Shown here: positions 1,717 through 46,072 of the stretch, piece by piece
Layout of the letters: every line of letters starts with the position of its first letter
Numbering within the stretch: the first letter of the stretch is position 1
DNA from: a virus
Strand: one strand, 5' to 3'
IMG/VR virus record: IMGVR_UViG_3300029520_000002
DNA length: 64,000 nt
The notes under the pieces: generated by a model
Databases searched by the model: none
The model's input: only the letters and a program-made list of their open reading frames with translations
What the model was told of the DNA's origin: nothing
Program-made: the position numbers and the translations under genes

Positions 1717-1738
1717 AAATTATGGAGAGGGAAACACA

Positions 1739-1957
1739 ATGAATGTTGAAAAATATTTATCTGAAAAGCTGTCAAGCCATGAGGGACAGAAATATTTAGA
1801 ATTTAGAAGAAGAAACGGACAGGAAGCAGACGAACTCTACAAAAAAGTAAAAAATGAAATTGCCGAATGCCATCTGTCCGTTACGGAAGCAAAAGGGTTC
1901 TTAGAATTTATGAAGTTGGTTATTGAAGAGCTTTCATATATTCCGGTCAAAGAATGA
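1739..1957 (+). CDS. hypothetical protein
   Basis: Internal ATG of ORF 1676-1957, preceded by GGAGAGGGA. Confidence 0.55.
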   Translation: MNVEKYLSEKLSSHEGQKYLEFRRRNGQEADELYKKVKNEIAECHLSVTEAKGFLEFMKLVIEELSYIPVKE

Positions 1958-2162
1958 CTTCTGTGGTAATGCTTTTAATATCAAAACCGTCAGAATCAAA
2001 TACATCTTGAATTTCATTTGCGGTATGAAGCATTGAAAGAATTTCTTTTGAATACGGATGTTCTTTTCCACAGTTTGGACACGAAATTTTATCCGCACTT
2101 ATTGCTTCATTCAAATAGTAGCTACAACGACAGTTACAGGAAACTTTTAATTTGAGAAACAT
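1947..2162 (-). CDS. small Cys-rich zinc-ribbon-like protein
   Basis: Start MFLKLKVSCNCRC... is preceded on the minus strand by GAAAGGAGGTG. Contains a CPNCGK motif. One of the few minus-strand genes in the early module. Confidence 0.5.
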   Translation of the reverse strand: MFLKLKVSCNCRCSYYLNEAISADKISCPNCGKEHPYSKEILSMLHTANEIQDVFDSDGFDIKSITTEVIL

Positions 2163-2236
2163 TTTAACACACCTCCTTTCTGAACACATTATACCATTCA
2201 GAGGGAGATAATAAAAGAAAACAGGGAGGAAAAACA

Positions 2237-2527
2237 ATGATTAAATTTGAAAACGGCTTACTTAACATTTCTGGTAAAGGGATTGATATTCTTTCAGAGT
2301 ATGCAGTTATTACCCATGAAATTAAAGAGATGTTTGTAAAAGATGGTGGAAAAGAGGAAGAAGTAAAAGAACAGCTTAGACATTCGTTCGAGCATGGTCT
2401 TATGAACGAAGAAGAACTTGATAAAGAAATCAAGGAAAAGTTCAAACGGGTAGATGCAATTATTCCGATTGTGTCGCTTCTGGAAGAAATGCTTAAAACA
2501 TTCGGTGCAAAAGACAAGGAGAATTAA
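2237..2527 (+). CDS. hypothetical protein
   Basis: 96-aa ORF with SD GGGAGGAAAA. Confidence 0.6.
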   Translation: MIKFENGLLNISGKGIDILSEYAVITHEIKEMFVKDGGKEEEVKEQLRHSFEHGLMNEEELDKEIKEKFKRVDAIIPIVSLLEEMLKTFGAKDKEN

Positions 2528-2529
2528 TC

Positions 2530-2718
2530 ATGGGAGAAACTAAAAGTACAGATTATATTCCAGAGAACGCCAATGAAGAATATGCACTTCTGGTTGGAAG
2601 ATTAAAGGCATTTGAAGCTTGGGCGAATAACGTGAACGATTATGATTTCACAAAGGATATGGCATTTAGAATGCTTGGGCTTGATGTGGACGAATCAAAG
2701 AAGGAAAAGAAAAAATGA
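2530..2718 (+). CDS. hypothetical protein
   Basis: 62-aa ORF with SD AAGGAGA, tightly packed with its neighbours. Confidence 0.55.
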   Translation: MGETKSTDYIPENANEEYALLVGRLKAFEAWANNVNDYDFTKDMAFRMLGLDVDESKKEKKK

Positions 2719-3665
2719 AATGCTTTAAAGGCTTTGATAAGAATTTAAAGTGCAGAGGTTTCCAGTATGAGGAGGGAAAAGAGTTTCATGTAGCAAAAGC
2801 GGATTGCTGTAATGAGGGATTTCATGCGTGTGAGTATCCTTTGGATTGTTTTGGTTATTATAATCCGGCTGAGAGTGTTTTCCATGAGGTAGAGTTATCT
2901 GGAGAAATGGATAAGAGTGAAGGTTATACTAAGGTATGTGCTACTGATATTAAGATTGGTGCAAGAATCTCTATTGCTGGATTGGTGAAAGCAGCTATTG
3001 AGTTTACCATGAGTAAAGTAAACAAAGAGGAAAAATCAGATGAAAGACACGGCTTTGCATCTGCGACAGGGTATCGTGGAGCCTCATCTGCGACAGGGAA
3101 TTTTGGAGCCTCATCTGCGACAGGGGATCGTGGAGCCTCATCTGCGACAGGGGATTATGGAGCCTCATCTGCGACAGGGGATTATGGAGCCTCATCTGCG
3201 ACAGGGGATTTTGGAGCCTCATCTGCGACAGGGGATTATGGAGCCTCATCTGCGACAGGGTATCGTGGAGCCTCATCTGCGACAGGGTATTGTGGAGCCT
3301 CATCTGCGACAGGGTATCGTGGAGCCTCATCTGCGACAGGGAATTTTGGAGCCTCATCTGCGACAGGGTATTGTGGAGCCTCATCTGCGACAGGGTATTG
3401 TGGAGCCTCATCTGTTAATGATCCTACTGGTGTTGCAATTGCATGGGGACATGAGGCAAAAGCTAAAGGTTGCTTAGGTGCTCACTTGATTATCTCTGAC
3501 TGGAGATACATTGGAGAAAAGTGGTCTAATGGAGAGTATAAAAGACCTTATGCATTAGAAAACTGGGAGCTTGCTGGTGCTAAAATGGTACGGGTAGATG
3601 GAGAAAACATTAAAGAAGATACTTTCTATACGTTGAAAGACGGAAAATTTGTAGAAGTAGATTAA
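2715..3665 (+). CDS. repeat protein: Cys/His-rich N-domain (DUF7666-like by recollection) plus about 13 nonapeptide repeats ASSATG-x-x-G
   Basis: 316-aa ORF. N-terminus is MKCFKGFDKNLKCRGFQYEEGKEF...CCNEGFHACEYPLDCFGYY. The central repeat is G-ASSATG-(Y/D/N)(R/Y/F/C). Confidence 0.7.
   Translation: MKCFKGFDKNLKCRGFQYEEGKEFHVAKADCCNEGFHACEYPLDCFGYYNPAESVFHEVELSGEMDKSEGYTKVCATDIKIGARISIAGLVKAAIEFTMSKVNKEEKSDERHGFASATGYRGASSATGNFGASSATGDRGASSATGDYGASSATGDYGASSATGDFGASSATGDYGASSATGYRGASSATGYCGASSATGYRGASSATGNFGASSATGYCGASSATGYCGASSVNDPTGVAIAWGHEAKAKGCLGAHLIISDWRYIGEKWSNGEYKRPYALENWELAGAKMVRVDGENIKEDTFYTLKDGKFVEVD
3057..3414 (+). repeat. 27-bp tandem repeat, about 13 copies, in-frame within CDS 2715-3665
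   Basis: The unit tcatctgcgacaggg-NATNNT-ggagcc repeats head to tail. Variation is confined to two codons per unit. Confidence 0.95.
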
Positions 3666-27704: not shown

Positions 27705-27784
27705 CAAAATGTATTGAGTGGAGTTATGTGAAGTGTTATACTTTATATGATTCCACTCCCTGTATATTGAGGGAGAAATGCACT

Positions 27785-29497
27785 ATGAATATTTATTATG
27801 TCAGAGAAAAATTAAGGAGTTGTTCTATTTACGACATTGAACTGAATGTTGCTTATTACGCTAGGGTTTCTACGGAAAAAGTTGAACAGCAAGCATCCAT
27901 TAAACACCAGGAGGAACATTTCGAAGAACTGATACATTCTAACAACAGATGGAAGTTTGCAGGTTCTTACATTGATGATGGTATTTCCGGAATGCACGCA
28001 GATAAAAGAGAAGAATTTCAAAGAATGCTCAGAGATGCAAAGCTCGGAAAAATTGACATGATTATTACGAAAGAAATCTCAAGATTTGCACGAAATACTC
28101 TTGACAGCATCCAATATACCAGGGAATTGTTATCTTACGGCGTATGCGTGTGGTTCCAAAATGACGGAATCAATACCATTGATGAAGATAGTGAACTTAG
28201 GCTAACAATTATGGCTGGAGTAGCACAGGACGAAATCAGAAAATTATCTTCAAGAATAAAATTCGGCCATGCACAGTCAATTAAAAACGGTGTTGTACTT
28301 GGGCACAGAATGTATGGATACTCAAATCATCAAGGAAAACTTGAGCTAATCCCGGAAGAAGCAGATATGGTTCGAATGGTCTTTCGAGACTATGCTTCTG
28401 GAATGTCTACACCAAGAATCGAAAAAAAACTCTGGAATATGGGATATAGAAGTTTCAAAGGCGGTAAGATCAGTAGAGATGTCATAAAAAATATTATTCG
28501 GAATCCAAAATACAAAGGATACTATTGCGGAGGAAAAGTCAAGATCGTTGATATGTTCACAAAAAAGCAGGAATTTCTTCCACAGTCAGAATGGATAATG
28601 TTTAAGGATGATGGTTCCAGAGTACCGCAGATCATTGATGAAACTACCTGGGAAAAGGCAAACGCATATTTAAGAGAGCGTGGAGAAGCTATAAAATCAA
28701 GAAGAACCTCTTTTAAAAACGAAAATATTTTCACTGGAAAACTTTTCTGCGCAAATGACGGAGCTCCATACTGGATGAAGCAGCATTATATTCGAGGAAA
28801 AGAAGATGTTCGATGGGTATGCAGTTATAAGATAAAAAATGGAGCAGATTCATGTGATTCATTTGGACTGGCAGAATCAGAACTGAAAGAAGTAATCGCA
28901 GAATTAATAAATAAATCTTCTGAAAACATTGATAGCATTTTGGAGGAATATTTTGAAATTTTGCAGTCCTCGATCAAAAACATTCCAGACAATAAAAACG
29001 AAATCTCACGACTTGAAAAACAGATTGATCTGTTAAAACAAAAACGTGAAAAAATACTGGAATATAATCTGGATGGAAAAATATCTGATGATGAATTTAT
29101 TTCAAGAAATAAAGAATACGTGAAGCAGATAAAGCAGATTGAGAGCCATATTCTAGAAATCCAAAATACAAAAAGTCCAGAGCCAGTAGAAATACAATTA
29201 AGTGCTATTAAAGAACAGCTAGAAAAGTTTAAGGGCGTTAATCCAAAAGACATTAACAGGCAGATTGTCAATGAACTTTTTGAAAAAATTACCGTGGAAC
29301 CGTTGGCGGCTACATGTGCAACACTAACATTTCAATTGAGGTCTGGAAGCATTGAAAAATGGGGGTTTCCCTTGCGCCGTTCTGACGATATGATTTTAAC
29401 TCTACATTCAGAACAACACAAGATATTTAGTAGGAAAACTTGCATTAAGACACAAGATATGGTATTTTTCAAATATAAGTACCTTTTAGCACTATAA
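27785..29497 (+). CDS. large serine recombinase (integrase)
   Basis: Resolvase domain with YARVSTE. Recombinase domain (EEADMVRMVFRDYASGMSTPRIEKKLWNMGY). Cys cluster and coiled coil. SD GAGGGAGAA. Confidence 0.9.
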   Translation: MNIYYVREKLRSCSIYDIELNVAYYARVSTEKVEQQASIKHQEEHFEELIHSNNRWKFAGSYIDDGISGMHADKREEFQRMLRDAKLGKIDMIITKEISRFARNTLDSIQYTRELLSYGVCVWFQNDGINTIDEDSELRLTIMAGVAQDEIRKLSSRIKFGHAQSIKNGVVLGHRMYGYSNHQGKLELIPEEADMVRMVFRDYASGMSTPRIEKKLWNMGYRSFKGGKISRDVIKNIIRNPKYKGYYCGGKVKIVDMFTKKQEFLPQSEWIMFKDDGSRVPQIIDETTWEKANAYLRERGEAIKSRRTSFKNENIFTGKLFCANDGAPYWMKQHYIRGKEDVRWVCSYKIKNGADSCDSFGLAESELKEVIAELINKSSENIDSILEEYFEILQSSIKNIPDNKNEISRLEKQIDLLKQKREKILEYNLDGKISDDEFISRNKEYVKQIKQIESHILEIQNTKSPEPVEIQLSAIKEQLEKFKGVNPKDINRQIVNELFEKITVEPLAATCATLTFQLRSGSIEKWGFPLRRSDDMILTLHSEQHKIFSRKTCIKTQDMVFFKYKYLLAL

Positions 29498-30186: not shown

Positions 30187-30304
30187 TAATTACCAGAGAA
30201 AGAAGAAACTTTCCAAGTCCCAAATGAAGCGGACTGAACGATTAGAGAAATCATCCCACAGAAGATATGGAACACGGAAGAAAGAAGGATTAAATAAATT
30301 GTGA
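30170..30304 (+). CDS. small basic protein (44 aa)
   Basis: ATG 5 nt after AAGGAGGG. K/R-rich. Confidence 0.35.
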   Translation: MGTTTDNYQRKKKLSKSQMKRTERLEKSSHRRYGTRKKEGLNKL

Positions 30305-30362
30305 ATATTGAATCATTTAAAACTTTACGCTATAGAAATATTTGTGCAAAATTAAAATTTAA

Positions 30363-30407
30363 GTGGTAACTAGAAAATGCAAGATTTTTTCTGGTTGCCA
30401 CTTTTTT
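30363..30407 (+). terminator. intrinsic terminator ending the + strand early/integrase unit
   Basis: GTGGTAACTAG pairs with CTGGTTGCCAC (includes G-U pairs), followed by T6. Confidence 0.6.
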
Positions 30408-30409
30408 CT

Positions 30410-31134
30410 GGATTTCCTTGATTTTTGGCTGCCAAAATGATGTTTGAATTTGGATATCATTCACAAGTTAGTTGCAACTATTGAAGCCTTGAACAGCTGC
30501 GGTTATTTATTACCACAAATCAACCAGGGACAGCGCCTGGAGCCGATACCACGCCGAACCGATGAAGCCGGGAAACTGCCAGGAACGATTGAACACCAAC
30601 GAAGTCAACCGCCAGCCGTAGCTCTGGCAGATCAGAACCAATAGCCCACGGATAATAGGCCATAGCAACAAGTAACATACAACACGACGTTAAAATACAA
30701 TAATACTCTTGCAAAATAAGCCTTAAATGGCTTGTAACGTATTTAGCCTATATTTTATTGGCTACGATTATAAAACGCCTTAAAATGGCAAATACAGCGT
30801 TATACAAGCATATCACAATATAGTTGTATAGCCCTAATTGATATATAGCCCGGACAACCTACGCACATAAGCGGACAAAATGCACCAATTTACACGGTAC
30901 ACAAATAAAGCATAGCCGAACATAGCTATACAAGGCTATTATACACCCATAGCCGCAGACAGTCAATAAATCATGCAACACACTATAAAGCGTTTTAAAG
31001 GCTCATAAACGGCTTATAATGCAAACGTGGAATAAATCACCATTAACAGCATAAAAAAACGATTTACGGATAAAATAGCTCGTTAATTGATTGACTTATT
31101 ATATTAACTTTGCAAGGTGTATCTGGCAGAATGC
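30410..31134. other. ORF-free, strand-asymmetric (A+C-rich top strand), iteron-bearing region
   Basis: No credible ORF. Hand counts for 30841-30900 and 30901-30960 give A 23/25, C 17/16, G 10/9, T 10/10. ATAGCC(C/G) occurs five times in one orientation. GCCTTAAA(A)TGGC mini-hairpins are present. Confidence 0.6.
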
Positions 31135-31190
31135 CAAAAAACCGCTTGCACGCCGTGAACGTGCCGCCGGTCTAGAAACCGGGAAGCGGT
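31135..31190 (-). terminator. intrinsic terminator of the minus-strand operon
   Basis: In minus sense, ACCGCTT...AAGCGGT encloses two inner hairpins and is followed by T6. Confidence 0.65.
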
Positions 31191-31196
31191 AAAAAA

Positions 31197-31346
31197 TCAA
31201 TCAGTTATACCTAAATATTCCATAGTTTTTTTATCAATCTCTTTCCCAGTAATAGTCGGGGAATAAATACTTTCTAAAAATTCTATGTAATTGTCTAGCT
31301 CATCAACAGAAAGTGTTATTAATTTATTAAATATTTTATCACTCAT
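31197..31346 (-). CDS. small hypothetical protein (49 aa)
   Basis: MSDKIFNKLITLSVDELDNYIEFLESIYSPTITGKEIDKKTMEYLGITD. Last gene of the minus-strand operon. Confidence 0.4.
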   Translation of the reverse strand: MSDKIFNKLITLSVDELDNYIEFLESIYSPTITGKEIDKKTMEYLGITD

Positions 31347-31402
31347 GTTTTTATCTTTCTTCCCTTCACCCTGGGAACCAGGATATAAAAAGACGCGCCC
31401 TA

Positions 31403-31780
31403 TTATTTAAAAGTCATTTTTGTAACAGCTGGAAGACTGCGGAAAAATTCCCGGCGGTCGTAATCATCATTAATTCTAAATTGTTGGTCGCTTGTGGGGA
31501 TGATCTCGCCCTCGATAAGCTCCATACAGGAGAGCTGTAAACAGTCTGCATTTTTTGTTGATCTGTGCAGCGCATATCGCATCACAGACTTTTTACCATC
31601 CCGACGCTTTACCGGGGACATATCCCAATAAGCCAATTTAATAGCTCCATCGGAAACAGCCTTGAAGATTTCCATTGCTTCCTTTTCAGCTTTTCTGTTG
31701 ATTGTATCAACTGTGGAGAAATCGCCGCTTTTTATGGCGGCGATTGTCTGTGCTTGTGTTGCTTTCTTGATTGTTACCAT
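31403..31780 (-). CDS. hypothetical protein
   Basis: 125-aa ORF with an SD (GGAGGTG on the minus strand) upstream. Confidence 0.65.
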   Translation of the reverse strand: MVTIKKATQAQTIAAIKSGDFSTVDTINRKAEKEAMEIFKAVSDGAIKLAYWDMSPVKRRDGKKSVMRYALHRSTKNADCLQLSCMELIEGEIIPTSDQQFRINDDYDRREFFRSLPAVTKMTFK

Positions 31781-31791
31781 TTACGCACCTC

Positions 31792-32070
31792 CTACAGATC
31801 TTTCTTTCTCTTAACGTCAATGACTTCATAATCGTTTTCAGAAAGATCCTTTAACATTCTCAATGCTTCCATGGTATTCTCTGGAATATCATAACCATTT
31901 TCACGAAGGAGATCAGCGGCGGTAACAAGATACTGATTTCCATAGCCATACTGAATACTACTTTTTAAAATATGGCCATTTACGACAATCGTTACTGTGT
32001 GATAAGTATTTCCATATAATTTTTGAAACCATCTGCGGCCTCTAATTACTAATGTTTCGATTTTTTTCAT
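31792..32070 (-). CDS. hypothetical protein (RRWF...GNTYH...YGYG motif)
   Basis: 92 aa. SD AAAGGTGAAAAA on the minus strand. First gene downstream of a strong consensus promoter. Confidence 0.65.
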   Translation of the reverse strand: MKKIETLVIRGRRWFQKLYGNTYHTVTIVVNGHILKSSIQYGYGNQYLVTAADLLRENGYDIPENTMEALRMLKDLSENDYEVIDVKRKKDL

Positions 32071-32126
32071 TGTTTTTCACCTTTACCCCTGTTATAATGG
32101 GGTTGCCTTTCTTTTTTTAGTTTGGT

Positions 32127-32162
32127 GCCCGGTTTGGTTTGGAAGATCGCCGGGCTTTTTTT
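32127..32162 (+). terminator. intrinsic terminator (+ sense) upstream of the switch
   Basis: GCCCGG (32127-32132) pairs with CCGGGC (32150-32155), followed by T7. Would block + strand read-through that is antisense to the minus operon. Confidence 0.6.
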
Positions 32163-32191
32163 ATTTTGTTGTAATGTTTCTTTCTAGTATT

Positions 32192-32220
32192 ATAATAACA
32201 CTATATAGTAATACTGTCAA
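32192..32220 (-). promoter_or_regulatory. sigma-A-type promoter of the minus operon with embedded operator
   Basis: In minus sense: TTGACA (32220-32215), 17-nt spacer, TATTAT (32197-32192). The spacer contains the operator-like AACACTATATAGT. Confidence 0.6.
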
Positions 32221-32242
32221 GCACTATTATATTATTTCTTAA

Positions 32243-32272
32243 TTGACTTTTGATACTTTTTAGTGTTATCCT
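32243..32272 (+). promoter_or_regulatory. promoter of the XRE-like gene with embedded operator
   Basis: TTGACT (32243-32248), 18-nt spacer, extended -10 TGtTATCCT. The spacer contains ATACTTTTTAGTGTT (operator copy, 32253-32267). Confidence 0.5.
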
Positions 32273-32291
32273 GTTTCCAGGAGGTGAAAAA

Positions 32292-32495
32292 ATGGACGGT
32301 ACAAAAATCATTAAAAAATTACTTTTGGAAAAAGATATAAACACTGTAGAGCTTGCGAAGCGTTTAGGCTGCGGAACCGCTAACCTTTACAACAAGTACA
32401 AAAGAAACAACTTTTCTTTAAATGAACTTGAAGAGATCGCCGCCGCTGTTGGCTGTAATCTGGAAATAACTTTTTCCGATAAACAAGGGAACTAG
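32292..32495 (+). CDS. XRE-family HTH regulator (Cro-like size)
   Basis: INTVELAKRLGCGTANLYNKYKRNNFSLNELEEIAAAVGCNL. SD AGGAGGTG. Confidence 0.75.
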   Translation: MDGTKIIKKLLLEKDINTVELAKRLGCGTANLYNKYKRNNFSLNELEEIAAAVGCNLEITFSDKQGN

Positions 32496-32601
32496 AGTTT
32501 TTCAATTAATCAGTCCGTTTCCTTATGTCCTCATTGGCTTGAGTGGTTCGGGCGGTTCCGGTTGTTTGTTTCTTGTGTTCCTTTGTTGATGGTTATATAT
32601 T

Positions 32602-32641
32602 AACACTAAAATTAGTGCATGTCAACACTAAAAAGAGTGTT
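32602..32641. promoter_or_regulatory. two adjacent operator palindromes
   Basis: AACACTAAAATTAGTGCA (32602-32619) and AACACTAAAAAGAGTGTT (32624-32641). Confidence 0.65.
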
Positions 32642-32658
32642 TTTTAAAATATTTTATA

Positions 32659-32687
32659 TTGCTTTTTGATGTTAATTCAATTATAAT
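32659..32687 (+). promoter_or_regulatory. promoter of the second HTH gene
   Basis: TTGCTT, 17-nt spacer, TATAAT. Confidence 0.55.
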
Positions 32688-32716
32688 TATTTCATAAATA
32701 GTAGGGAGGGTTTGAA

Positions 32717-32944
32717 ATGTTTAAATATAAAATAGATGTAATGAAATCATTATCAGATCGTGGCTTTACGTCTACCAGAATGAGAAAAGAAAAGATATTA
32801 AGTGAAGCCACAATGCAAAATTTGAGAAAAGGCAAAGGGATTACAACAGAGACGCTAAATACAATATGCGTTATATTAAGATGCCAACCGTCTGACGTTC
32901 TGGAGATAATACCGACAGATGATGAAAAAATAAAATATTTTTAA
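32717..32944 (+). CDS. HTH DNA-binding protein
   Basis: ILSEATMQNLRKGKGITTETLNTICVILRCQPSDVLEII fits the short Cro/C1-type HTH proteins of Clostridia. Confidence 0.7.
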   Translation: MFKYKIDVMKSLSDRGFTSTRMRKEKILSEATMQNLRKGKGITTETLNTICVILRCQPSDVLEIIPTDDEKIKYF

Positions 32945-32988
32945 ACACTAAAAATAGTGTTTACATATATATAAAAATGTGCTATACT
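32944..32988 (+). promoter_or_regulatory. perfect operator palindrome overlapping a promoter
   Basis: AACACTAAAAATAGTGTT (32944-32961) overlaps the -35 TTTACA (32960-32965). A 17-nt spacer leads to the -10 TATACT (32983-32988). Confidence 0.6.
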
Positions 32989-33111
32989 GTAACCATAGAA
33001 AGGAAGTGGTTACAGAATGAAAAAACATATTATCGAGGTACCAGATATTGAAGCGGTTGGAGTTTATGCAATTCATAATAAGAAAAATGATAAGTATTAT
33101 ATAGGCTCTAG

Positions 33112-33988
33112 AGTGTGTTTGAAAAATAAAAGTTGCACAAAACATATATTCGTTTACCCTTTTTCATGTTAAAATAAAGAAAAAGGGGTGTTGATTATGT
33201 TGCGCCGATACGAATTAACCGATGATGAATGGAATCGTGTTGCTCCCTTACTGCCACCTGAAAATTCTGGAAAGCAAGGTCGTCCTTCAAAATGTAATCG
33301 GACAATTCTAAATGGAATTGTTTGGATTGCTCGCAGTGGGGCTCCCTGGCGGGACCTCCCAGAACGTTATGGGGCCTGGCAAACGGTTTATTCCCGTTTT
33401 CGTAAATGGATTGAAGATGGCATCCTTGATAATATTTTTCGTGTCTTGAGCTTAGAAGCTGAATTAACGGAACTATCAATTGATGCCTCTATCGTCCAGG
33501 CTCATCAGCATAGTGCTGGAGCAAAAAAAGGGGGCCATCAAACGAAATTGGACACAGCCGTGGAGGAGCCAGCACAAAAATCCATGCAGTTGTAGATGCA
33601 TACGGTTATCCGGTTTATTTTATGATCAGCGAAGGGCAGCGTAACGATATTAATTACGCAATCCCTTTGTTAGATCATGTCGACACAAACGGAAGCAATG
33701 TATTAGCTGACCGTGGATACGATAGCAACAAGCTGATTGACTATATTTATACCCACGGTGGAGAGCCAACAATTCCTTCTAGAAAAGGAGCTAAGTTTGA
33801 TCGTTATTGCGATTGGTGACTTTACAAAGAGAGACATTTAGTAGAAAACTATTTTCTCAAATTGAAAGCGTTCCGTCGAATAGCTACGCGTTACGATAAA
33901 CTGGCTTCAACCTTCTTAGGAATTATATGCATTGCCTCAATATTAATTTGGTTAAAATGAACAACTTAGAATGTTTTTCAAACACGCT
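33112..33988 (+). mobile_element. IS5-family insertion sequence (877 bp)
   Basis: Terminal inverted repeats AGTGTGTTTGAAAAAT and AGCGTGTTTGAAAAAC (reverse complement), 15/17 matches. Flanked by a 4-bp direct repeat CTAG (33108-33111 and 33989-33992). Confidence 0.85.
33197..33960 (+). CDS. IS5-family transposase (orfA/orfB -1 frameshift; internal TGA)
   Basis: orfA is MLRRYELTDDEWNRVAPLLPP...SGAPWRDLPERYG. The slippery site is A AAA AAA G at 33523-33530. orfB reads ...RGGASTKIHAVVDAYGYP...LADRGYDS...RIATRYDKLA. An in-frame TGA at 33817-33819 precedes LYKERHLVENYF. Confidence 0.75.
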
Positions 33989-34485
33989 CTAGTGTGAATG
34001 TTAAAACCAGATTAAAAACACATCAGCGAAACATGGAAAAGCTGCAAGGCTCAAATTTAAAAATTGATGAAGACTTGAAAACATTTGAAGACTTGAAAAA
34101 TTTTGAATTTATAGTTCTTAAAACTTTTCCAGATTTTACAATAACAGATTATGATCTGAGAGAAGCAGAAGAAGGATTTATAAAAAAATATAATGCTTAT
34201 CATGGTTATAATAACGCATTTTGCAAGCCTGTTTCGACTGGCTTTTATGGTAAAAACGAATTGCTGAAGTGCAAGAAGGCAAGAGCAAAAAGTTATAAAA
34301 AGTTAGAATTTTCAGATATTGAAAAAATGACAGATTATGAAATTGTAAATACTTTGATAATAGCGTGCGAAAAGCCAGAAGAATATAGAACATTAATATC
34401 TATGCTAAAATATCAAATACTGCATAGAATGGACAGTTAAAGAAAACCACGCAGCCCTAGGAGGGCAGATCAGGAGGAAAAGAAC

Positions 34486-34773
34486 ATGGAAATTAAAATT
34501 TATTGCAATTACGGAGTCTTAGGAGCGGAGAAAAGGAAGAAATACACTTTTGGAGCACCACATGCAACGGCTGATTGCTGGGAAGAAATGACAGTAGAAA
34601 CACCAGAAGGATGGGAGCCTTTTAAAAACGATATGGGCAAGTTAATGGTAAAAGCTCCATGGGGTTGGGACTACGAAATAAACGAAGTTTTACAGGGTGA
34701 CGAAAATCCTTGTTTTTATGCCTTAGACAAGAATATGGACGGGCATCGAAAATATTTGAAAATCATAGGGTAA
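34486..34773 (+). CDS. hypothetical protein
   Basis: 95 aa with SD AGGAGGAAAA. Confidence 0.6.
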   Translation: MEIKIYCNYGVLGAEKRKKYTFGAPHATADCWEEMTVETPEGWEPFKNDMGKLMVKAPWGWDYEINEVLQGDENPCFYALDKNMDGHRKYLKIIG

Positions 34774-34936
34774 CTTATAATTAAACTTTTAGGAGGATAA
34801 AAAATATATAGGCGAAACAGAAGCGTTATATTATCAATCTCAAACGGAAATTCCAAATATATTAGGCTGGCTAAATGGAACGCCGCGAAATGAAAAAGTA
34901 TGGGATAAATGGGAAAGTTTAACAAGGCAAATAAAT

Positions 34937-34967
34937 AAAGCCCTAGGAAATTAATCCCGGGGCTTTT
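34937..34967 (+). terminator. putative intrinsic terminator
   Basis: AAAGCCC pairs with GGGGCTTT, followed by a T-run. Confidence 0.5.
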
Positions 34968-35207
34968 AAAATGCTTATTTGTGGCGGCGTAACGACAATC
35001 GAGGGGTTAACAGCCCCACCGCCGAAGCTGTTAAGATATTAATAGCACAGGTTTTTAATTTTTGTCAAGGAAAATGTTTTTTTATTTTTGGCTTGACTTT
35101 CTGGAAAACTTACAGTAACGTTATTATCAACGACGGTCGCGGGAACTCATGGAGGGGTAGTTATTGCAAAATCGTTTGTACCTGAACAGAATAAAGTAGC
35201 AGTTAAC

Positions 35208-35252
35208 AAGCCAGATCAGCCAGGTATTGAAGTCCGGTAAGGTCTGGCTTTT
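35208..35252 (+). terminator. putative intrinsic terminator (possible 3' end of a small RNA)
   Basis: AAGCCAGA (35208-35215) pairs with TCTGGCTT (35243-35250), followed by Ts. The 27-nt loop is itself structured. Confidence 0.45.
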
Positions 35253-35455
35253 ATTATGTTTAAATATATTATATATAATATATCTTTTACCCCTCCATAG
35301 ATTCTTAAGACTAGAGTTTATTAAAAGATATGCTATACAGTACCGTATAATAATATATATAATATAAATATAAATGAAGATTATAATATAATATCACAAA
35401 TATTATTTATTAATTACTGACAAAATAAAGGGTTTTATTTTATGCAAAATTAAAT

Positions 35456-35485
35456 TTGACAAGATATTAAAAACTGTGTTAAGGT
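35456..35485 (+). promoter_or_regulatory. candidate promoter for the packaging/late operon
   Basis: TTGACA (35456-35461), 18-nt spacer, TGtTAAGGT extended -10-like. Follows an extremely AT-rich tract. Confidence 0.4.
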
Positions 35486-35526
35486 ATCAGCAACAAAGAA
35501 AACAGAATATTTTATTTTAAGTTTTA

Positions 35527-35593
35527 GAGAATGTACCCGAACACCCGGAAGTTTTCCGGGAATAAGCTTTACCTGGTGACATTCTCTTTTTTT
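35527..35593 (+). terminator. leader terminator-like structure upstream of terS
   Basis: GAGAATGT (35527-35534) pairs with ACATTCTC (35579-35586), followed by T7. It encloses CCCGG-aagtttt-CCGGG and lies 35 nt before the terS ATG. Confidence 0.55.
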
Positions 35594-35628
35594 ATTTGTG
35601 AATTAACGTGTTAAAGTGAGGTGATAAC

Positions 35629-36219
35629 ATGAAAGATAATACAGTAAATGTACAAGACGTAGATATCTATTTAGATAATATTAATATATATGCTGATGAA
35701 TATATAAATACTGTATTATGTATATCACCAGATAACGAAAACTATAAGAAAGAAGTATCAGACAGCTTTGTAGATATGATTTTTTATATTGCAGATCATA
35801 TACAAAAGCCAAGTAATGACAATATAGAGCTATTAGATAAAATGTTTAATACTTATGTGAGATTATGCAGTAAATATCATGTATTACCAACACTAGAAGT
35901 ATTTAGCTTTTTAGTTGGGATTAATCGTACAACGTTTACTGACTGGATGAATGGAGTGTATAGAATAAACTCGTCACATGGTGACACGGCTAAAAAATGG
36001 TTTGATATTTGTAAAAACTGCGCGATCAATAGATTGCATAATCAGACCGGAACAAATGCGAATTTGATATTTGTTGCAAAAGCCGCATACGGCATGGCAG
36101 AAACTGCACCGGTGCAAGCTACACAACAGTATGGCGTACCACAGCAGACCGCGCAACAGATCGCAGAGAAACACAAAGCAGCTTTGCAGCTTCCAGAGAT
36201 GGAAAAGCCGGAGCTTTAA
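35629..36219 (+). CDS. terminase small subunit
   Basis: PTLEVFSFLVGINRTTFTDWMNG...NLIFVAKAAYGMAE fits the TerS HTH-plus-oligomerisation pattern as I recall it. SD GTGAGGTGA. Confidence 0.6.
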   Translation: MKDNTVNVQDVDIYLDNINIYADEYINTVLCISPDNENYKKEVSDSFVDMIFYIADHIQKPSNDNIELLDKMFNTYVRLCSKYHVLPTLEVFSFLVGINRTTFTDWMNGVYRINSSHGDTAKKWFDICKNCAINRLHNQTGTNANLIFVAKAAYGMAETAPVQATQQYGVPQQTAQQIAEKHKAALQLPEMEKPEL

Positions 36220-36541
36220 AGCCTTGGAGAGTACAGAATCGGTAAAAATGTACATGAGTGACGGACAAAAGGCAGTAAACGCATGAAACCATACAATATG
36301 CACAATAATGACGATTATATTTGTACATGATGTATAGATTTTTAAAGGCATCTATAGAAAAAACAAGTGTTTATCAAACAGACTGAATATTCTGATAATA
36401 TAAGACGCTGGGCGGTTCAGCAGGACGCCCCGGGAGGGGTATATATAAAAGCCATCCAGGGCGTAGTCAGTTGCCCGAGTTTCTGAGAAAACAAAAAAAG
36501 ACTCTTTCACCATAGAGAAGCAATACTTAACGGAGCATGAT

Positions 36542-37087
36542 ATGAGAAAATGGTTGAGTCAAGAAGAAAAACAGAATATTGGTACTGTCTGTTGCAATTG
36601 TGGCGCAACAGAAGATATTGAATATCATCATATTGTGCCGCTTTTATTAGGCGGTAATGATGTTGAGAGTAATATTGTTCCTTTATGCTATAAATGCCAT
36701 AAAGCAGCTCATATGGGACAACACATTAACCATTACAGAAACAATAGCCGTGGCGGAAGACATTCAAAATCAAGTATTGAAAAGAATGCTCATGTATTCG
36801 ATCAATACATCAATGGAGAAATCGGATGCAGAAAAGCACAACAATTACTTGGATATTCTAATAGAACAACAATAGTTGGGCTTCCAGTTTTTAAACGCTA
36901 CATTCAGTCTATTGGGATTAAAAGTGTCAGAAATATTGTTGACGTAACAGCTACAAATAGTGTGGATGGGCTTTCTGATGGCTCATATGTTGGTGAAATA
37001 ATTTACCTAGACGGGAGAAAAGAAAACATCTACTACAAAGACACTGGCGCAAATGATATTGAGTATGTAAAACGCCAATGTTCATAG
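36542..37087 (+). CDS. HNH endonuclease
   Basis: CCNCGATEDIEYHHIVPLLLGGNDVESNIVPLCYKCHKAAH. Confidence 0.85.
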   Translation: MRKWLSQEEKQNIGTVCCNCGATEDIEYHHIVPLLLGGNDVESNIVPLCYKCHKAAHMGQHINHYRNNSRGGRHSKSSIEKNAHVFDQYINGEIGCRKAQQLLGYSNRTTIVGLPVFKRYIQSIGIKSVRNIVDVTATNSVDGLSDGSYVGEIIYLDGRKENIYYKDTGANDIEYVKRQCS

Positions 37088-38393: not shown

Positions 38394-38550
38394 ACTAATC
38401 GGAATTGCTGCAAACATTATGTTTTTCGTGATTATTATTGCTGGCGTTCTGGCAATGATGGATGAAAGAAAGATAAATCTTTTACAAGCGTTCTTCTACC
38501 TTCTGATGGAAATTGTATTTGCACTGAATATTTTCTTGATTATGAGGTGA
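38380..38550 (+). CDS. small membrane protein (56 aa)
   Basis: SD GGGGAGGAAAA. Two hydrophobic helices. Confidence 0.45.
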   Translation: MNALELIGIAANIMFFVIIIAGVLAMMDERKINLLQAFFYLLMEIVFALNIFLIMR

Positions 38551-38553
38551 CAT

Positions 38554-38691
38554 ATGTATCTACCGATTCCAATTGGAATTATCCCGATTGAGTTAATCGA
38601 ACGGGTTAAATTCATAAAAAAATCACTTCGACTTAATCCGCGCAGGTTAGGAAAAGCCTACGAAAGCGAAAAGTCGATGCATCCAGAGTAG
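38554..38691 (+). CDS. small protein (45 aa)
   Basis: ATG after GAGGTGA. Confidence 0.3.
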   Translation: MYLPIPIGIIPIELIERVKFIKKSLRLNPRRLGKAYESEKSMHPE

Positions 38692-38781
38692 CAAATAAGA
38701 ATTTAAGAAAATTTTATAGGTTAAAATGCTGGATGTTATATATCACGCCCCCTGGTTTGATGGTGCACCAGGGGGAATCAA

Positions 38782-38854
38782 TGGGCTATCGCCAAACGGT
38801 TAAGGCATAGGATTTTGGCTCCTTTATTTGTCGGTTCGAATCCGACTAGCCCCG
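38782..38854 (+). tRNA. tRNA-Gln (anticodon UUG)
   Basis: Hand-folded cloverleaf of 73 nt. Acceptor TGGGCTA/TAGCCCC (1-72 is a T-C mismatch). D arm GCC/GGC. Anticodon arm TAGGA-TTTTGGC-TCCTT. T arm GTCGG-TTCGAAT-CCGAC. Resembles Bacillus tRNA-Gln. No encoded CCA. Confidence 0.8.
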
Positions 38855-38857
38855 TTC

Positions 38858-38888
38858 GCAGCATCACCTTGCTGCAAGTTCTTTTTTT
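38858..38888 (+). terminator. hairpin plus T-run after tRNA-Gln
   Basis: GCAGCA-tcacct-TGCTGC, then aagttcTTTTTTT. Confidence 0.5.
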
Positions 38889-39060
38889 CATACTTTCACC
38901 TCCGGTCTTCTAGCCCAACGGGGCTGATTAAAGGGGCTTCAAATATCCCGGAAGGCTTATCTGAAGTATCAGGAGTATTTCAGAAAACCTTTGTTATAGT
39001 TGGTGGTTAAGAACTGTAACAGTGCCAGTTTGGTTACCAGTATTGCCAACTGGTATCTCA

Positions 39061-39133
39061 GGAAGCTTAGTTCAGCGGTAAGAGCAACGGCCTCATAAGC
39101 CGTAAGTCCTGGGTTCAAATCCCAGAGCTTCCA
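39061..39133 (+). tRNA. tRNA-Met/Ile2-type (anticodon CAU), elongator-like
   Basis: Acceptor GGAAGCT/AGCTTCC. D arm GTTC/GAGC. Anticodon arm ACGGC-CTCATAA-GCCGT. T arm CTGGG-TTCAAAT-CCCAG. The G1-C72 pair argues against an initiator. Confidence 0.85.
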
Positions 39134-40057
39134 TTTCTCCTAAATGCCATTCATCCGTAATATGGGTGGAAAAAACTTCCGGTTGAGCGTGTGGATCAGG
39201 TAAATTATAGGTGCGATACGGCGCAGCCTAAATGGATCTGGTTTCCCAGCTGGAATGCATCTTGGAGTTAAAGAAATCAGCGCAGCGCACGCTGATTAAA
39301 GGAGTTTTCAAAAGATGCGAACCATAAGCCATTAAAGTTGTGCATAAAAATACTCGTGGAGCATACCACGGTTATCAAAAAGCCGCCAGGGTTGCCAGTA
39401 AGCGTACCGCAAATAAAGAAAACTGGATAGTGGAAAGCATAACACGATAAACCTATTGCTAACCCGGTTTTTCCGGGTTATTCGGAAAGTGCAAGTAACT
39501 GGGAACGGCCTGGTCGTAGACTAGGTCTTAATGGTTCGAATCCATTCTTTCCGTTCCGTATAGTGGCGAAATATGTAGACGCTATTGTGGTAGCATAGGT
39601 TTCAACCCACAACTTAGGTGACCTAAGTCGACAGCATGATAGGTGTAAATCCTATCCTATACGGACGTTTGGCGTGTTGAGTGATAACACACCTGATTGA
39701 AAAGTGGCGGAACTATTGACGGTGATGAATCCGATACAATAGAAAGGCAGACGCAGAGGATAGTACATCATAATGGGTGAGTATGTGTCTTAGGACATGG
39801 GATGTACATAGAAGTTCAAATCTTCTCTTTTCAATTCTATCTACCAAGTGTAGATTGGAAATCTGACTTTAGCATAGCTATTGTTAGTTCTCGCACATAA
39901 ATGAGGATTTGTTTGTGTGCGTTCGTGCAGGCATATAGACGCAACTCACTAGCGATCTTGTGCAAAAACTTTTTAGAGAGATAAGACCAATGCCCGTGAG
40001 GAGTGATAGTCGGGGATTCTAAAAAAATCATCTTGTTTAGCGTTTGAGGATGAAAAA
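39134..40057 (+). ncRNA. candidate large structured non-coding RNA region between tRNA genes
   Basis: About 0.92 kb without a credible ORF. Many local hairpins, e.g. AATCAGCG-cagcgca-CGCTGATT at 39283-39305 and AACCCGG-tttttc-CGGGTT near 39461. Three T-arm-like modules. Confidence 0.4.
39483..39554 (+). tRNA. tRNA-like element, identity unresolved (possible pseudo-tRNA)
   Basis: Perfect 7-bp acceptor CGGAAAG/CTTTCCG and canonical T arm AATGG-TTCGAAT-CCATT. The anticodon arm CCTGG-TCGTAGA-CTAGG has C at position 33, and the D stem does not pair. Confidence 0.3.
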
Positions 40058-40129
40058 AGAAACATAGCTCAGTGGTAGAGCAATGATATCCAATATCATG
40101 TGACACAGGTTCGATTCCTGTTGTTTCTA
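40058..40129 (+). tRNA. tRNA-Trp (anticodon CCA)
   Basis: Acceptor AGAAACA/TGTTTCT. D arm GCTC/GAGC. Anticodon arm ATGAT-ATCCAAT-ATCAT. T arm ACAGG-TTCGATT-CCTGT. Confidence 0.85.
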
Positions 40130-40278
40130 TCTGGCAAATTGCCATTGCCAGAAGTTGTTTTTCCCCTGAAAGGTTCCAGTGTTTCTCGTTGGGAGATTTA
40201 TGCCGTTCAAGTCGGCACACTGGATTTTTGAATTTGAAGCGTTTGAACAATACTCTTTATTTCGGGAGGGCGTAGACG

Positions 40279-40590
40279 ATGACAGGACAAGAAATTGAAA
40301 AAATGCAAAAGGATTTATCTGATTACAAAAATGTGTTTTCAGAGTTAGAAAAAAGGTGCAGTCAAGAGGCACTAGAATACTGGGGACGCCATTTGTGGTA
40401 TGGGCTTACTATTCAGTCAAACACAGAAGCATTATCCCCAAAAGATGATGAACCGCCTACAGAGCCGATAAAATTAGCTGACTGGCTGATAGACAGAGGG
40501 TTAAAGGGAGGAATCCGATTGTATGGGAAAAGCGACCTTAGAAAGCTTGCGAATTATCTACTGATTTACTGTGGTGATGAGAATGATTGA
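40279..40590 (+). CDS. hypothetical protein
   Basis: 103 aa with SD GGGAGGG. Confidence 0.6.
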   Translation: MTGQEIEKMQKDLSDYKNVFSELEKRCSQEALEYWGRHLWYGLTIQSNTEALSPKDDEPPTEPIKLADWLIDRGLKGGIRLYGKSDLRKLANYLLIYCGDEND

Positions 40591-44377: not shown

Positions 44378-46072
44378 ATGGGAAAAATTACAGAAGGCTC
44401 GCTTGAATGGTATCGGGCAGTGCTAAATCAAATTATCAATAGTGACATGACAATCTATCAAAATCAAAAAGATTGCCTCGATTTGCTCTTAAATATGAAT
44501 ATTGACCTTCCTTTCGACAAGAACCAAGAAGCACGGAAAATGGCTATGAAAGTAAGTCAATACTCACATAACATAGCAGAGAAGTGTGCTGCATTAACTG
44601 GTAGTGGTGACTTTGACGATATCTACTGGCAGTATTTGTTACTGGAAGCACCACATTTATTTGAAAGTTACTTGCTTTATATGGAAAAAAACAGACCAGG
44701 CAGCAAGAAATTTTATATTCCACGAAGAAAAACACTACATGTGGTAGCCCAAGACTTACAGGATTTGGAAGAAAGAAAAATAGAGTTTTATGGTTTATCG
44801 CTTCCAAGCCGTGTTGGAAAATCTACTATGTGTATTTTCTTTATGTCTTGGATAATGGGTAAAAGACCGAATAGCCATAGTGCCATGGGCGGTCATTCTG
44901 GAAAACTGGCAAAAGGATTCTATGGAGAACTTCTTAACCTCATTAATACACAGGAATACAACTACAGTGAAATTTTTCCGCAATCGAAACTTCAAAAACA
45001 GAGTGCTGATGATTTTGAAATAAACCTGGACAAGCCAGACCGATTTGCAACAATGACTTGCCGTGGTATTGAAGGTACTTGGACAGGTGCCGTTGATATT
45101 TCTTCTGATGGGTATTTGTACGTGGATGACCTTGTAAGAGATAGGCAACATTCATTAAGCCCTACCCGATTGGAAAATACATATCAAGAATATCTGAACA
45201 AGATGGTTGACCGTAAGATTGATGGTGCAAGAGAACTTATGGTTGGAACCAGATGGAATTTATATGACCCTCTTGGAAAAATCGAGAAGCTAAATCGGGA
45301 TAATCCAATGTATCGGTTTAGAAAAATTCCAGCTTTGAATGATGATGGTGAATCCAATTTCGATTATGAGTATGGCGTTGGATTTTCAACAAAATATTAT
45401 GTCGATATGAAAGCCAGGTTAGACGCTAACGAATGGGAAGCCAAATATCAGCAAAAGCCCTTCTTACGTGAAGGAATTGTGTTTGCAGCTGACGAATTAA
45501 GATATTATAACGGCGTTCTCCCAGAAGGTGGATTTGTTAAAAATGTTTCTGCTTGCGATGTTGCGTGGGGTGGTGGCGATAGCTTATCAATGCCAGTGGG
45601 TGCAGAATACGAAAATGGAGATGTATATATTTATGATTGGATTTTTAGCACAGCACCAAAAGAAGGAACATTGCCATTAGTTGTTGGAAGAATCATGGGA
45701 AATAATATTCAATCCATCAATTTTGAAGCAAATAATGGTGGAGATATGTATGCCTATTATGTAAATGAACGCTTGAAAGAACATAAATACGCTTGCAGCA
45801 CGACAAGTACAAAAGCACCTTCAAAACAAGCAAAAAAAGAAAAAATAAATCAATATTCCGGGGATGTTAAGCAAAATTTTATATTTTTGGCTCCGAAATA
45901 TCAAAATAAACAGTATCAAAAGGCTATGGATGAATTAACTACATTCGTCTATATTGGTGATAATGAACATGATGACGCTGCCGATGGAGTTACGCAGCTT
46001 GCAATAACGCTTGCCGGCAAAAGATTTGCAGAAGTAAAAGCAACCAAAAATTTTATGTGGGGAAGGAGATAG
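44378..46072 (+). CDS. terminase large subunit
   Basis: Walker A-like LPSRVGKST, Walker B-like YLYVDDLV, C-terminal nuclease-like acidic motifs (DVAWGGGDS, NEHDDAADG). 564 aa. Lies upstream of the portal. Confidence 0.8.
   Translation: MGKITEGSLEWYRAVLNQIINSDMTIYQNQKDCLDLLLNMNIDLPFDKNQEARKMAMKVSQYSHNIAEKCAALTGSGDFDDIYWQYLLLEAPHLFESYLLYMEKNRPGSKKFYIPRRKTLHVVAQDLQDLEERKIEFYGLSLPSRVGKSTMCIFFMSWIMGKRPNSHSAMGGHSGKLAKGFYGELLNLINTQEYNYSEIFPQSKLQKQSADDFEINLDKPDRFATMTCRGIEGTWTGAVDISSDGYLYVDDLVRDRQHSLSPTRLENTYQEYLNKMVDRKIDGARELMVGTRWNLYDPLGKIEKLNRDNPMYRFRKIPALNDDGESNFDYEYGVGFSTKYYVDMKARLDANEWEAKYQQKPFLREGIVFAADELRYYNGVLPEGGFVKNVSACDVAWGGGDSLSMPVGAEYENGDVYIYDWIFSTAPKEGTLPLVVGRIMGNNIQSINFEANNGGDMYAYYVNERLKEHKYACSTTSTKAPSKQAKKEKINQYSGDVKQNFIFLAPKYQNKQYQKAMDELTTFVYIGDNEHDDAADGVTQLAITLAGKRFAEVKATKNFMWGRR

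Follow-up and report, generated by a model that had tools for sequence, protein, structure and literature searches.

In a 64,000-nt stretch of viral DNA (IMG/VR record IMGVR_UViG_3300029520_000002; the whole stretch is called the window here), 924 nt free of reading frames within the region at positions 38692-40278 are a chain of separately folding RNA modules, and not one RNA; they make up the interior of a transfer RNA (tRNA) operon of ~1.3-1.5 kb. The operon comprises three decoding-type tRNAs and at least five tRNA-derived units, all of which keep an acceptor-like stem stacked on a T arm. The fate of the remainder of the tRNA differs between the units: the D stem is lost from a near-tRNA; the anticodon arm is gone from two mini units, sp1-mini and R2-mini; and the arms are greatly expanded in two elongated units, units 1 and 2. 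Structured spacers lie between the units, and a hairpin is found a few nucleotides upstream of most of them. Comparison with related phages points to selection on the helices and to turnover of cassettes between phages. Taken together, these features suggest, with a probability of about 0.6, that this locus specifies a tRNA-operon precursor that is processed into tRNAs and stable non-decoding tRNA mimics.

The acceptor-plus-T-arm units are real and well above chance. We wrote a scan that looks for a T stem of 5 bp, capped by a T-like loop and running straight into a closing stem of 7-10 bp; it identifies five units in 1.8 kb, as compared to 0.03 per shuffle. These are: tRNA-CAU; 39483-39553, within the near-tRNA; 39555-39665, unit 1; 39695-39836, unit 2; and tRNA-Trp. 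The same scan on the remaining ~125 kb, counting both strands of the window, returns only three loose matches. All features of the array lie on the plus strand. Relatives for evolutionary comparison were collected by two exact-word scans of IMG/VR, giving more than 200 loci on gut-phage contigs of 40-85 kb, and by later scans that brought the set to 328 loci (individual loci carry L numbers below).

The three ordinary tRNAs of the array had been folded by hand in the preliminary description, and ARAGORN and the Rfam RF00005 model agree on each of them (53-71.5 bits): tRNA-Gln (UUG) at 38782-38854 (53 bits); a tRNA with anticodon CAU, of Met or Ile2 type, at 39061-39133 (71.5 bits); and tRNA-Trp (CCA), with discriminator A73, at 40058-40129 (65.8 bits). 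The tRNA-CAU is not an initiator, because it has a G1-C72 pair. At default settings, ARAGORN reports exactly these three tRNAs within the 64-kb window. When a canonical tRNA is defined as a default ARAGORN cloverleaf that also reaches at least 29 bits with RF00005, only these three qualify, and the sequences at 39483-39554, 39555-39665 and 39695-39836 do not.

The stretch from 38692 to 40278 contains no credible gene. As first described, the 924 nt between tRNA-CAU and tRNA-Trp lack a credible open reading frame, none on the plus strand between 39134 and 40057 being longer than 36 amino acids. The sole candidate, a 31-amino-acid reading frame at 39232-39327 (+), was considered as a small protein and at first seemed to be kept in L001 (LELK..RTLI.GVFKR). 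The frame, which overlaps the hairpins of a structured spacer, sp2, was rejected because it is interrupted by frameshifts or stops in most of 48 distinct relatives. Conservation at this position is therefore at the RNA level.

The near-tRNA at 39483-39554 has the perfect 7-bp acceptor and T arm noted from the outset, with T loop TTCGAAT and the anticodon-like loop UCGUAGA, which places a C at position 33; a D stem is absent. ARAGORN recovers it at relaxed thresholds or in mitochondrial mode only, as 'Tyr-gta', and not at default, and the Rfam tRNA model leaves it unreported even at E<=10. It is probably non-decoding. In ~31 relatives the acceptor and T stem are kept through double changes, as when the T stem AATGG/CCATT becomes GATGG/CCATC. 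The anticodon-like loop is mutated among relatives, or has 3 nt deleted (11 loci).

Units 1 and 2 correspond to the two longer units in which acceptor-like partners had been proposed, and the partners are present: unit 1 spans 39555-39665 (111 nt, 9 bp) and unit 2 spans 39695-39836 (142 nt, 9-10 bp). Their T-arm-like hairpins, ATAGG-TGTAAAT-CCTAT at 39639-39655 and AGAAG-TTCAAAT-CTTCT at 39811-39827, likewise bear out the first reading, as does the CTTAGG-tga-CCTAAG helix at 39613-39627. Both units are rejected by ARAGORN at default and by the Rfam tRNA model. They are paralogues, in each of which the closing stem is followed by a common AGTGGCGGAA...AGACGC, and recombinants of unit 1 with unit 2 occur in L213 and L206. 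A search with nhmmer over all loci collected for more distant homologues of the two units returned near-identical copies only.

Unit 1 has a minimum free energy (MFE) z-score of -3.6 and shows covariation among 21 distinct relatives. Its parts are: a closing stem, of 9 bp in the window and 5 bp conserved; a D-like stem, GCG/CGC; internal hairpins, among them CTTAGG/CCTAAG; and the T-like hairpin. Compensatory changes fall in the outer 5 bp of the closing stem (AU<->GC, UA<->CG), in the D-like stem (CG<->AU; GCG/CGC <-> GAG/CUC) and in the T-like stem (GC<->UA).

In the consensus fold of unit 2, a closing stem of 9 bp is combined with a canonical T arm; the D region carries an inserted hairpin of 30 nt, and the position of the anticodon arm is taken by an arm of 46 nt. 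Over 21 distinct sequences, 98.7% of the cells of the alignment are paired, as compared to 30-53% when the partners are slid by 1-3 columns, and six pairs are changed on both sides, as compared to 0-2 when slid. None of 500 shuffles reaches the observed values. The T stem occurs as AGAAG/CTTCT, GGAAG/CTTCC or GATGG/CCATC, and an inner helix as CGG/CCG or CAG/CUG. Directly upstream of unit 2, at 39668-39694, the sequence and its MFE fold give a short hairpin with a GTGTT/AACAC core.

The mini units represent the opposite fate of the anticodon arm, its absence. The first, sp1-mini at 38904-38957, is a three-helix tRNA-like unit supported by RNAalifold on 34 distinct relatives. Its two hairpins, AGCCC/GGGCT and GGGG-CTTCAAATA-TCCC, lie within a closing stem of 8 bp, GGTCTTCT/GGAAGGCT; compensatory changes occur in the closing stem (UA<->CG) and at two pairs of the first hairpin (CG<->UA). 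The second, R2-mini at 40175-40224, is a 50-nt unit with a 7-bp acceptor (TCCAGTG/CACTGGA), a D-like hairpin (TCTC-GTTGG-GAGA) and a T arm (TGCCG-TTCAAGT-CGGCA). Across its 14 distinct sequences 99.6% of cells are paired, as compared to 24-55% when slid, with five double-change pairs distributed over all three helices.

Comparison of the units indicates which portion of the tRNA is retained. A T loop of the form UUCRANY, with a 7-bp acceptor on a 5-bp T stem, is present in the near-tRNA (TTCGAAT), unit 2 (TTCAAAT) and R2-mini (TTCAAGT), and partly so in unit 1 (TGTAAAT) and sp1-mini (9-nt loop CTTCAAATA). Neither the near-tRNA nor units 1 and 2 nor the mini units have a standard anticodon arm, with its stem of 5 bp, 7-nt loop, U33 and conserved anticodon. 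Units 1 and 2 instead carry arms of 30-46 nt where the anticodon arm would be.

One explanation for such units would be a decaying tRNA array, in which functionless pseudogenes are left behind by the turnover of tRNA genes. The lost D stem of the near-tRNA fits this explanation, as do its acceptor, which is common to a scaffold family of the relatives described below (family B), and the rejection of the units by tRNA detectors. Intact tRNAs also occur in the same slot of other phages. The preliminary description had taken intact ordinary tRNAs at the corresponding positions of homologous phages as the mark of decay; they are found for the near-tRNA slot (a second tRNA-CAU, tRNA-Tyr-GUA, tRNA-Arg-CCU) and not elsewhere. 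However, pseudogenes should erode evenly, whereas here the acceptor and T stems are kept by double substitutions while the anticodon parts vary. Across 48 loci, median identity to the window is 94.9% for unit 2, as compared to 76-80% for the flanking open reading frames, 78-81% for the tRNAs and 83% for unit 1, making unit 2 the best-conserved segment of the region. In addition, the mini units are kept in more than 100 loci. The compensatory changes, and the conservation of unit 2 above that of neighboring genes, suggest that the units are maintained; this is not simple decay, and we regard functionless pseudogenes as a distinctly unlikely explanation.

The arrangement of these units among relatives provides a second line of evidence. 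Positions 39483-39850 are a swappable cassette slot, the content of which differs among related phages. To its left lies a conserved anchor at 39401-39482, present in more than 200 loci, with the hairpin AACCCGG/CCGGGTT (39461-39479) at its end, separated from the near-tRNA by 3 nt; the loop of this hairpin varies and the stem is kept. To its right lies R1 (39850-40057), a conserved anchor and structured spacer in ~90 loci, with a fold that shows a few GU/AU switches and ends in the hairpin TCATC/GATGA (40028-40053), 4 nt before tRNA-Trp. Coverage of the window by relatives is correspondingly high at 38751-39300, 39401-39500 and 39850-40250, and amounts to ~19 loci at 39550-39800. The anchor-to-anchor distance takes discrete values: 91 nt, the commonest; 149; 161; 317; 369, the window type; 447; 504; 560; 967; and ~2000-2200 nt. 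Relatives carry in the slot a second tRNA-CAU, a class II tRNA-Tyr-GUA, tRNA-Arg-CCU, Ser-GCU, or a gene with DUF2828 and VWA domains. Units 1 and 2 together (39555-39837) form one discrete cassette, which stands behind three different tRNAs in different phages. One relative, IMGVR_UViG_3300045988_084782, matches the window without a difference from 39481 to 39860. In T4, the homing endonuclease SegB lies within the tRNA cluster, targets a T-arm motif and drives the swapping of tRNA-region segments. By analogy, a SegB-like process could drive the turnover of cassettes here.

This modular arrangement bears directly on the proposal that a single large ornate RNA, of the ROOL, GOLLD, HEARO or raiA kind, fills the 0.9 kb from tRNA-CAU to tRNA-Trp and folds as one unit. 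Large ornate RNAs are known near prophage tRNAs, and this proximity was part of the case for the proposal in the preliminary description. Consistent with it, the 924-nt stretch is free of open reading frames and folds with z = -3.1 against dinucleotide shuffles. However, each module folds locally and has its own closing stem, and no single architecture of several hundred nucleotides is conserved among homologues. Instead, the flanks are kept and 39483-39850 is replaced by cassettes of 91 nt-2.2 kb, one of which is a protein gene. This rules out one conserved large fold. Searches of known families point in the same direction. When 38400-40500 was compared with all 4227 Rfam families by cmscan, using permissive filters and E<=10, the three tRNAs were found and the remaining matches were antisense or microRNA noise; ROOL, GOLLD, HEARO, raiA, Y RNA, transfer-messenger RNA (tmRNA) and intron models were all absent. 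At the gathering score, the whole window gives the three tRNAs and nothing else. Lack of an Rfam match had been named beforehand as an outcome that would tell against a large noncoding RNA, and it is the outcome obtained. The large ornate RNA is thus not supported and is largely refuted, and we consider it very improbable.

The fallback offered with that proposal, an array of decayed, intron-containing or permuted tRNAs, survives in one respect: the modules are tRNA-derived and belong to a tRNA operon. The remaining elements do not hold. For a group I intron in the anticodon loop, no intron family is matched at E<=10, and the intron mode of ARAGORN gives a single weak call at an 85% threshold ('Ser-gct with 37-nt intron'). 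ARAGORN finds no tmRNA at default, and only implausible permuted calls at an 80% threshold.

The anticodon domain also varies in two tRNA scaffolds of the related phages. Family A, defined by the body of the window tRNA-Trp (homologues L002-L204), comprises 99 copies with 10 distinct sequences, which vary essentially at nt 1 and at anticodon-loop nt 33-35 only. Nucleotides 33-35 read UCC (anticodon CCA), UUG or CUG (UGA), and CUC or UUC (UCA), with C33 in many copies. The A73 discriminator is unlike that of bacterial tRNA-Trp. In family B, with the scaffold [CT]GGAATGTAGCTCAGTGGTAGAGC...GCAGGTTCGATTCCTGCC[AT]TTCCG (for example L004, L010, L250-L302), the acceptor, D and T parts are invariant and the anticodon arm is hypervariable. 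At least 10 anticodons occur, including UGU, UAU, UGC, UCU, UAC, CAA, GCA and AUC, and some copies have 6-nt loops or 13-nt arms. The form seen most often in a wider scan, at 40 loci, combines a stem of 3 bp with the loop TGTAAAT. The pattern of family B suggests that a scaffold with a free anticodon domain is the general rule of the array.

Recoding of stop codons was considered and rejected. Family A loci with the opal-suppressor-like anticodon UCA show no TGA read-through in conserved genes: as candidate TGA readers, the loci with a UCA anticodon on the Trp body have two in-frame stops in 20,830 aligned residues, which is not above other classes. Recoding of stop codons in the window, prompted by the early identification of Gln and Trp tRNAs, was set aside as well, since reassignment of TGA, TAG or TAA raises coding density non-specifically. 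The standard-code coding density of the window gives no sign of recoding.

Between the units, the spacers are themselves structured. Two hairpins of spacer sp1, CTGAAGTAT.../...ATTTCAG and TTTGTTATAG.../...CTGTAACAG, occupy 38958-39024 and are supported by compensatory exchanges such as AU<->GC at alignment pair 150:171. They are followed by the hairpin CCAGTTTGG/CCAACTGG at 39025-39053, 7 nt upstream of tRNA-CAU. Spacer sp2 (39134-39320) is conserved and contains three hairpins, with many compensatory pairs (CG<->UA, AU<->GC) among 48 distinct relatives. The AATCAGCG/CGCTGATT helix reported earlier is real and belongs to sp2, though it lies at 39275-39297, ~8 nt to the left of where it had been placed. 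The 9-bp hairpin at 38748-38775, exact as first reported, lies 6 nt upstream of tRNA-Gln and is the first case of a hairpin followed by a tRNA or tRNA-like unit; at the same site L001 has a different 8-bp hairpin, GGCTCCTC/GAGGAGCC. Such a hairpin recurs 3-8 nt upstream of tRNA-Gln, tRNA-CAU, the near-tRNA, unit 2 and tRNA-Trp. A consensus scan also identified terminator-like hairpins after two of the tRNAs: GCAGCA/TGCTGC with a T run at 38858-38890, after tRNA-Gln; and TCTGGCAA/TTGCCAGA with a T-rich tail at 40130-40160, after tRNA-Trp.

These spacers raise the possibility that the units serve mainly as processing punctuation, and that the functional products are the spacer RNAs they free (the sp1 hairpins, sp2 and R1) or the mRNAs of relatives. 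The hairpin upstream of nearly every unit accords with this explanation, as each spacer would then carry a protective 3' hairpin after RNase P cleavage. Spacers sp1 and sp2 show compensatory changes of their own, only the enzyme-recognized part is conserved in the units, and relatives have a protein gene embedded among the units. Punctuation does not explain the near-invariant long internal arms and loops of unit 2, or the restriction of family A variation to anticodon-loop nt 33-35. As the principal role of the units it appears unlikely, and it is compatible with a precursor that also yields tRNA mimics rather than exclusive of it.

If the operon is such a precursor, its maturation would involve: rightward transcription of the locus as one or two precursors; cleavage at each acceptor/T-arm unit by the RNase P and RNase Z of the host, in the way that true tRNAs are processed; and completion of the 3' ends by the CCA-adding enzyme. 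The cleavage step is proposed because of what these enzymes are known to recognize and because of the precedent of the T4 precursor. In T4, a primary transcript of ~1.75 kb from the tRNA cluster yields eight tRNAs and the species I and II RNAs (PMC2330249). The CCA-adding step is invoked because CCA is encoded in none of the tRNAs or units of the array. Such processing would release three tRNAs and hairpin-capped spacer RNAs, together with several tRNA mimics of 50-142 nt that are stable and do not decode. The constant part of the units is that seen by processing enzymes and by tRNA-binding or -cleaving proteins, and the anticodon domain is free, which would place the mimics in the conflict between phage and host over tRNA. 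Here, the mimics may act as decoys or inhibitors of tRNA-targeting defense nucleases, which is the weakest step of the proposal. An alternative is that they are cofactors of an RNA-binding protein.

Several observations weigh against this proposal. Transcription, the processing sites, CCA addition and stability are all predictions from sequence, and a consensus scan of the plus strand gives no sigma-70-like promoter. For unit 1, the 9-bp acceptor is not conserved (the inner 4 bp vary, and one subgroup retains only 5 bp), RNAalifold favors an alternative inner fold, and the T-like loop reads TGTAAAT or TGGAAAT, unlike the consensus T loop of tRNAs. The covariation comes from few independent lineages; unit 2 is 97% identical over the alignment, and most of its pairs are invariant. 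Its conservation could reflect the recent horizontal spread of a cassette and not purifying selection. Finally, the analysis yielded no defense system, target or binding protein for the window.

A candidate RNA-binding protein does occur in relatives. The longest versions of the slot contain a gene for a 486-amino-acid protein with DUF2828 and DUF7788/VWA domains, present in 55 of the 328 loci and always within the array (in L001, within the region 1573-3393). The protein matches PHROG 850, 'RNA-binding protein', at E = 1e-138. Always 5' of the gene are an expanded tRNA-scaffold unit, in which the acceptor, D and T parts are canonical and ~60 nt are inserted, then a second, likewise expanded tRNA-like unit and a leader of ~140 nt. 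The octamer TACAGCAA is found in two or three copies at fixed positions in the first unit and the gene leader in all 54 upstream regions, ~100-fold above its background of 0.058 per kb per strand. Judged from these sequences, the DUF2828-VWA protein looks to have an RNA partner, which the leader of its own gene would mimic for autoregulation.

These observations prompt consideration of the units as Y-RNA-like partners of a Ro60-like protein, either the DUF2828-VWA protein of the relatives or a host homologue. Bacterial Y RNAs are tRNA mimics that adjoin rsr, and YrlA of M. smegmatis is a substrate of RNase P and receives CCA (PMC4201824). Both systems thus feature noncoding RNAs that mimic the tRNA elbow, formed by the T and D arms, and that are substrates of tRNA enzymes, a property that is predicted here. 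Both also feature a protein gene, which in the arrays of related phages is that for an 'RNA-binding' helical-repeat and vWA protein. The window itself is less accommodating: it lacks such a protein, as tblastn with the relatives' sequence reaches no lower than E = 3.5. Of 49 loci, only 7 have units 1 and 2 together with the gene. Neither TACAGCAA nor, on either strand of 38700-40280, the Ro-binding motif GNCGAAN0-1G is present in the stretch, and no Rfam Y-RNA model is matched (YrlA included, if in the release). Y RNAs are, moreover, permuted relative to tRNA: the ends of YrlA form the Ro-binding helix with GNCGAAN0-1G and its 'acceptor' is a closed stem-loop. The units of the window are not permuted, and their ends form the acceptor. 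The window has no TROVE protein, and a resemblance between DUF2828 and Ro60 could not be established: the relatives' protein has no PDB sequence match and no TROVE match in Pfam at E<=10, its AlphaFold2 model is poor (predicted local distance difference test score 62), and Foldseek matches to that model are vWA/MIDAS domains only. A literature search for DUF2828 gave nothing relevant. On balance, we consider a Y-RNA-like role for the units highly unlikely.

A broader possibility, advanced tentatively, is that the array is a hypervariable 'library' built on tRNA scaffolds. The enzyme-recognized top half (acceptor, T arm and elbow) would be held constant and the anticodon domain varied by deletion, shortening, point changes or replacement with large inserts, the products serving as decoys or inhibitors of tRNA-targeting immune nucleases. 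Where the DUF2828-VWA gene is present, they would be the RNA subunits of a TACAGCAA-binding, Ro-like ribonucleoprotein. The species 1 and 2 RNAs of T4 would then be the first-seen members of a broad class of tRNA mimics with a counter-defense role.

The genomic surroundings are those of a tailed, temperate phage, with nearly every gene on the plus strand. A large serine recombinase/integrase, assigned by its PHROGs match, is encoded at 27728-29497 (+) and indicates that the phage is temperate; the large terminase, likewise matched, is at 44378-46072. Further PHROGs matches in the window are to an SbcC-like protein, RecT, a DNA methyltransferase, a portal protein and a major head protein. The RNA region lies after the early and replication genes and before the packaging genes. 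An HNH endonuclease gene at 36542-37087 (+) is located 1.7 kb upstream of the tRNA array, and it is this gene that prompts the comparison with SegB made above. The segment at 30200-36500 has a low coding density, with short reading frames on both strands, and the GC minimum of the window (~0.30-0.34) falls around 32-36 kb; this segment is probably a lysogeny or regulatory module.

The habitat is the human gut and the host is probably a member of the Lachnospiraceae. This assignment draws on relatives of the terminase because a left-anchor 21-mer has an exact match in 0 of 185,579 GTDB representative genomes. The terminase relatives, at 53-64% identity, come mostly from assemblies of Lachnospiraceae and other Clostridia (Roseburia, Lacrimispora, Hungatella, Clostridium sp.), and one comes from a Bacteroidaceae metagenome-assembled genome. 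In most of these assemblies, too, a tRNA array precedes the terminase gene, and some of the arrays include odd tRNAs.

Recognition of phage tRNA clusters as anti-defense loci is recent, and decoding tRNAs alone have been studied in this role so far. Here, a widespread lineage of gut phages (more than 300 contigs) carries a tRNA operon rich in conserved RNAs that keep only the part seen by tRNA enzymes and tRNA-binding proteins. Neither tRNA finders nor Rfam detect such loci, which phage annotation therefore leaves blank at present. If the units accumulate in infected cells, they would be 'tRNA-scaffold' RNAs that occur in nature, would point to new targets in the contest of phages with tRNA-cleaving immunity, and would open a way to the function of the T4 species 1 and 2 RNAs.

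Among known systems, the vtRNA-miRNA (tRNA-microRNA) units of murine gammaherpesvirus 68 and the punctuation of mitochondrial transcripts both use non-aminoacylated, tRNA-shaped RNase P/RNase Z signals in a polycistronic RNA. The units of the window are predicted to resemble them in placing tRNA-shaped processing signals in a polycistronic RNA. In contrast to the window, these systems are eukaryotic or organellar.

A second comparison is with phage tRNAs that counter tRNA-cleaving defenses, including PARIS, PtuAB/Septu and similar systems: tRNA-Lys of T5 acts against PARIS, and tRNA-Tyr against Retron-Eco7/PtuAB and Septu (PMC11464382, PMC11555353, PMC13096335). Like the array of the window, these tRNAs lie in a cluster between early and late genes, with variable content and with variation centered on the anticodon loop. 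However, they are functional decoding tRNAs, whereas most units of the window cannot decode, the anticodon arm being absent, shortened or replaced.

The closest analogue of the units is found in the T4 species 1 and 2 RNAs (rnaC and rnaD). In the T4 record (AF158101, our L329; 1909-2172, minus strand), tRNA-Arg is immediately followed by rnaD (species 2, 119 nt) and rnaC (species 1, 139 nt), arranged head to tail. The window likewise has two non-tRNA RNAs of ~110-140 nt head to tail on the same strand, directly after the near-tRNA. The rnaC sequence folds with z = -4.6 into a structure with a canonical T arm, CCGGG-UUCGAAU-CCCGG, a terminal closing stem and expanded inner arms, as in unit 2. 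In contrast, the MFE fold of rnaD has no clear T arm (z = -0.8). To our knowledge, no function has been assigned to the species 1 and 2 RNAs for decades. The two systems share no homology beyond an 11-nt T-loop motif and so represent an analogous class rather than a homologous family, with hosts that are Enterobacteria in one case and probably Lachnospiraceae in the other. The array of the window also adds anticodon-arm-less mini units, structured spacers and a variable cassette slot. Non-tRNA stable RNAs in phage tRNA clusters are of a known, if poorly understood, kind; as far as we have seen, mini units that lack the anticodon arm, turnover of cassettes, and anticodon hypervariability on fixed scaffolds are apparently new.

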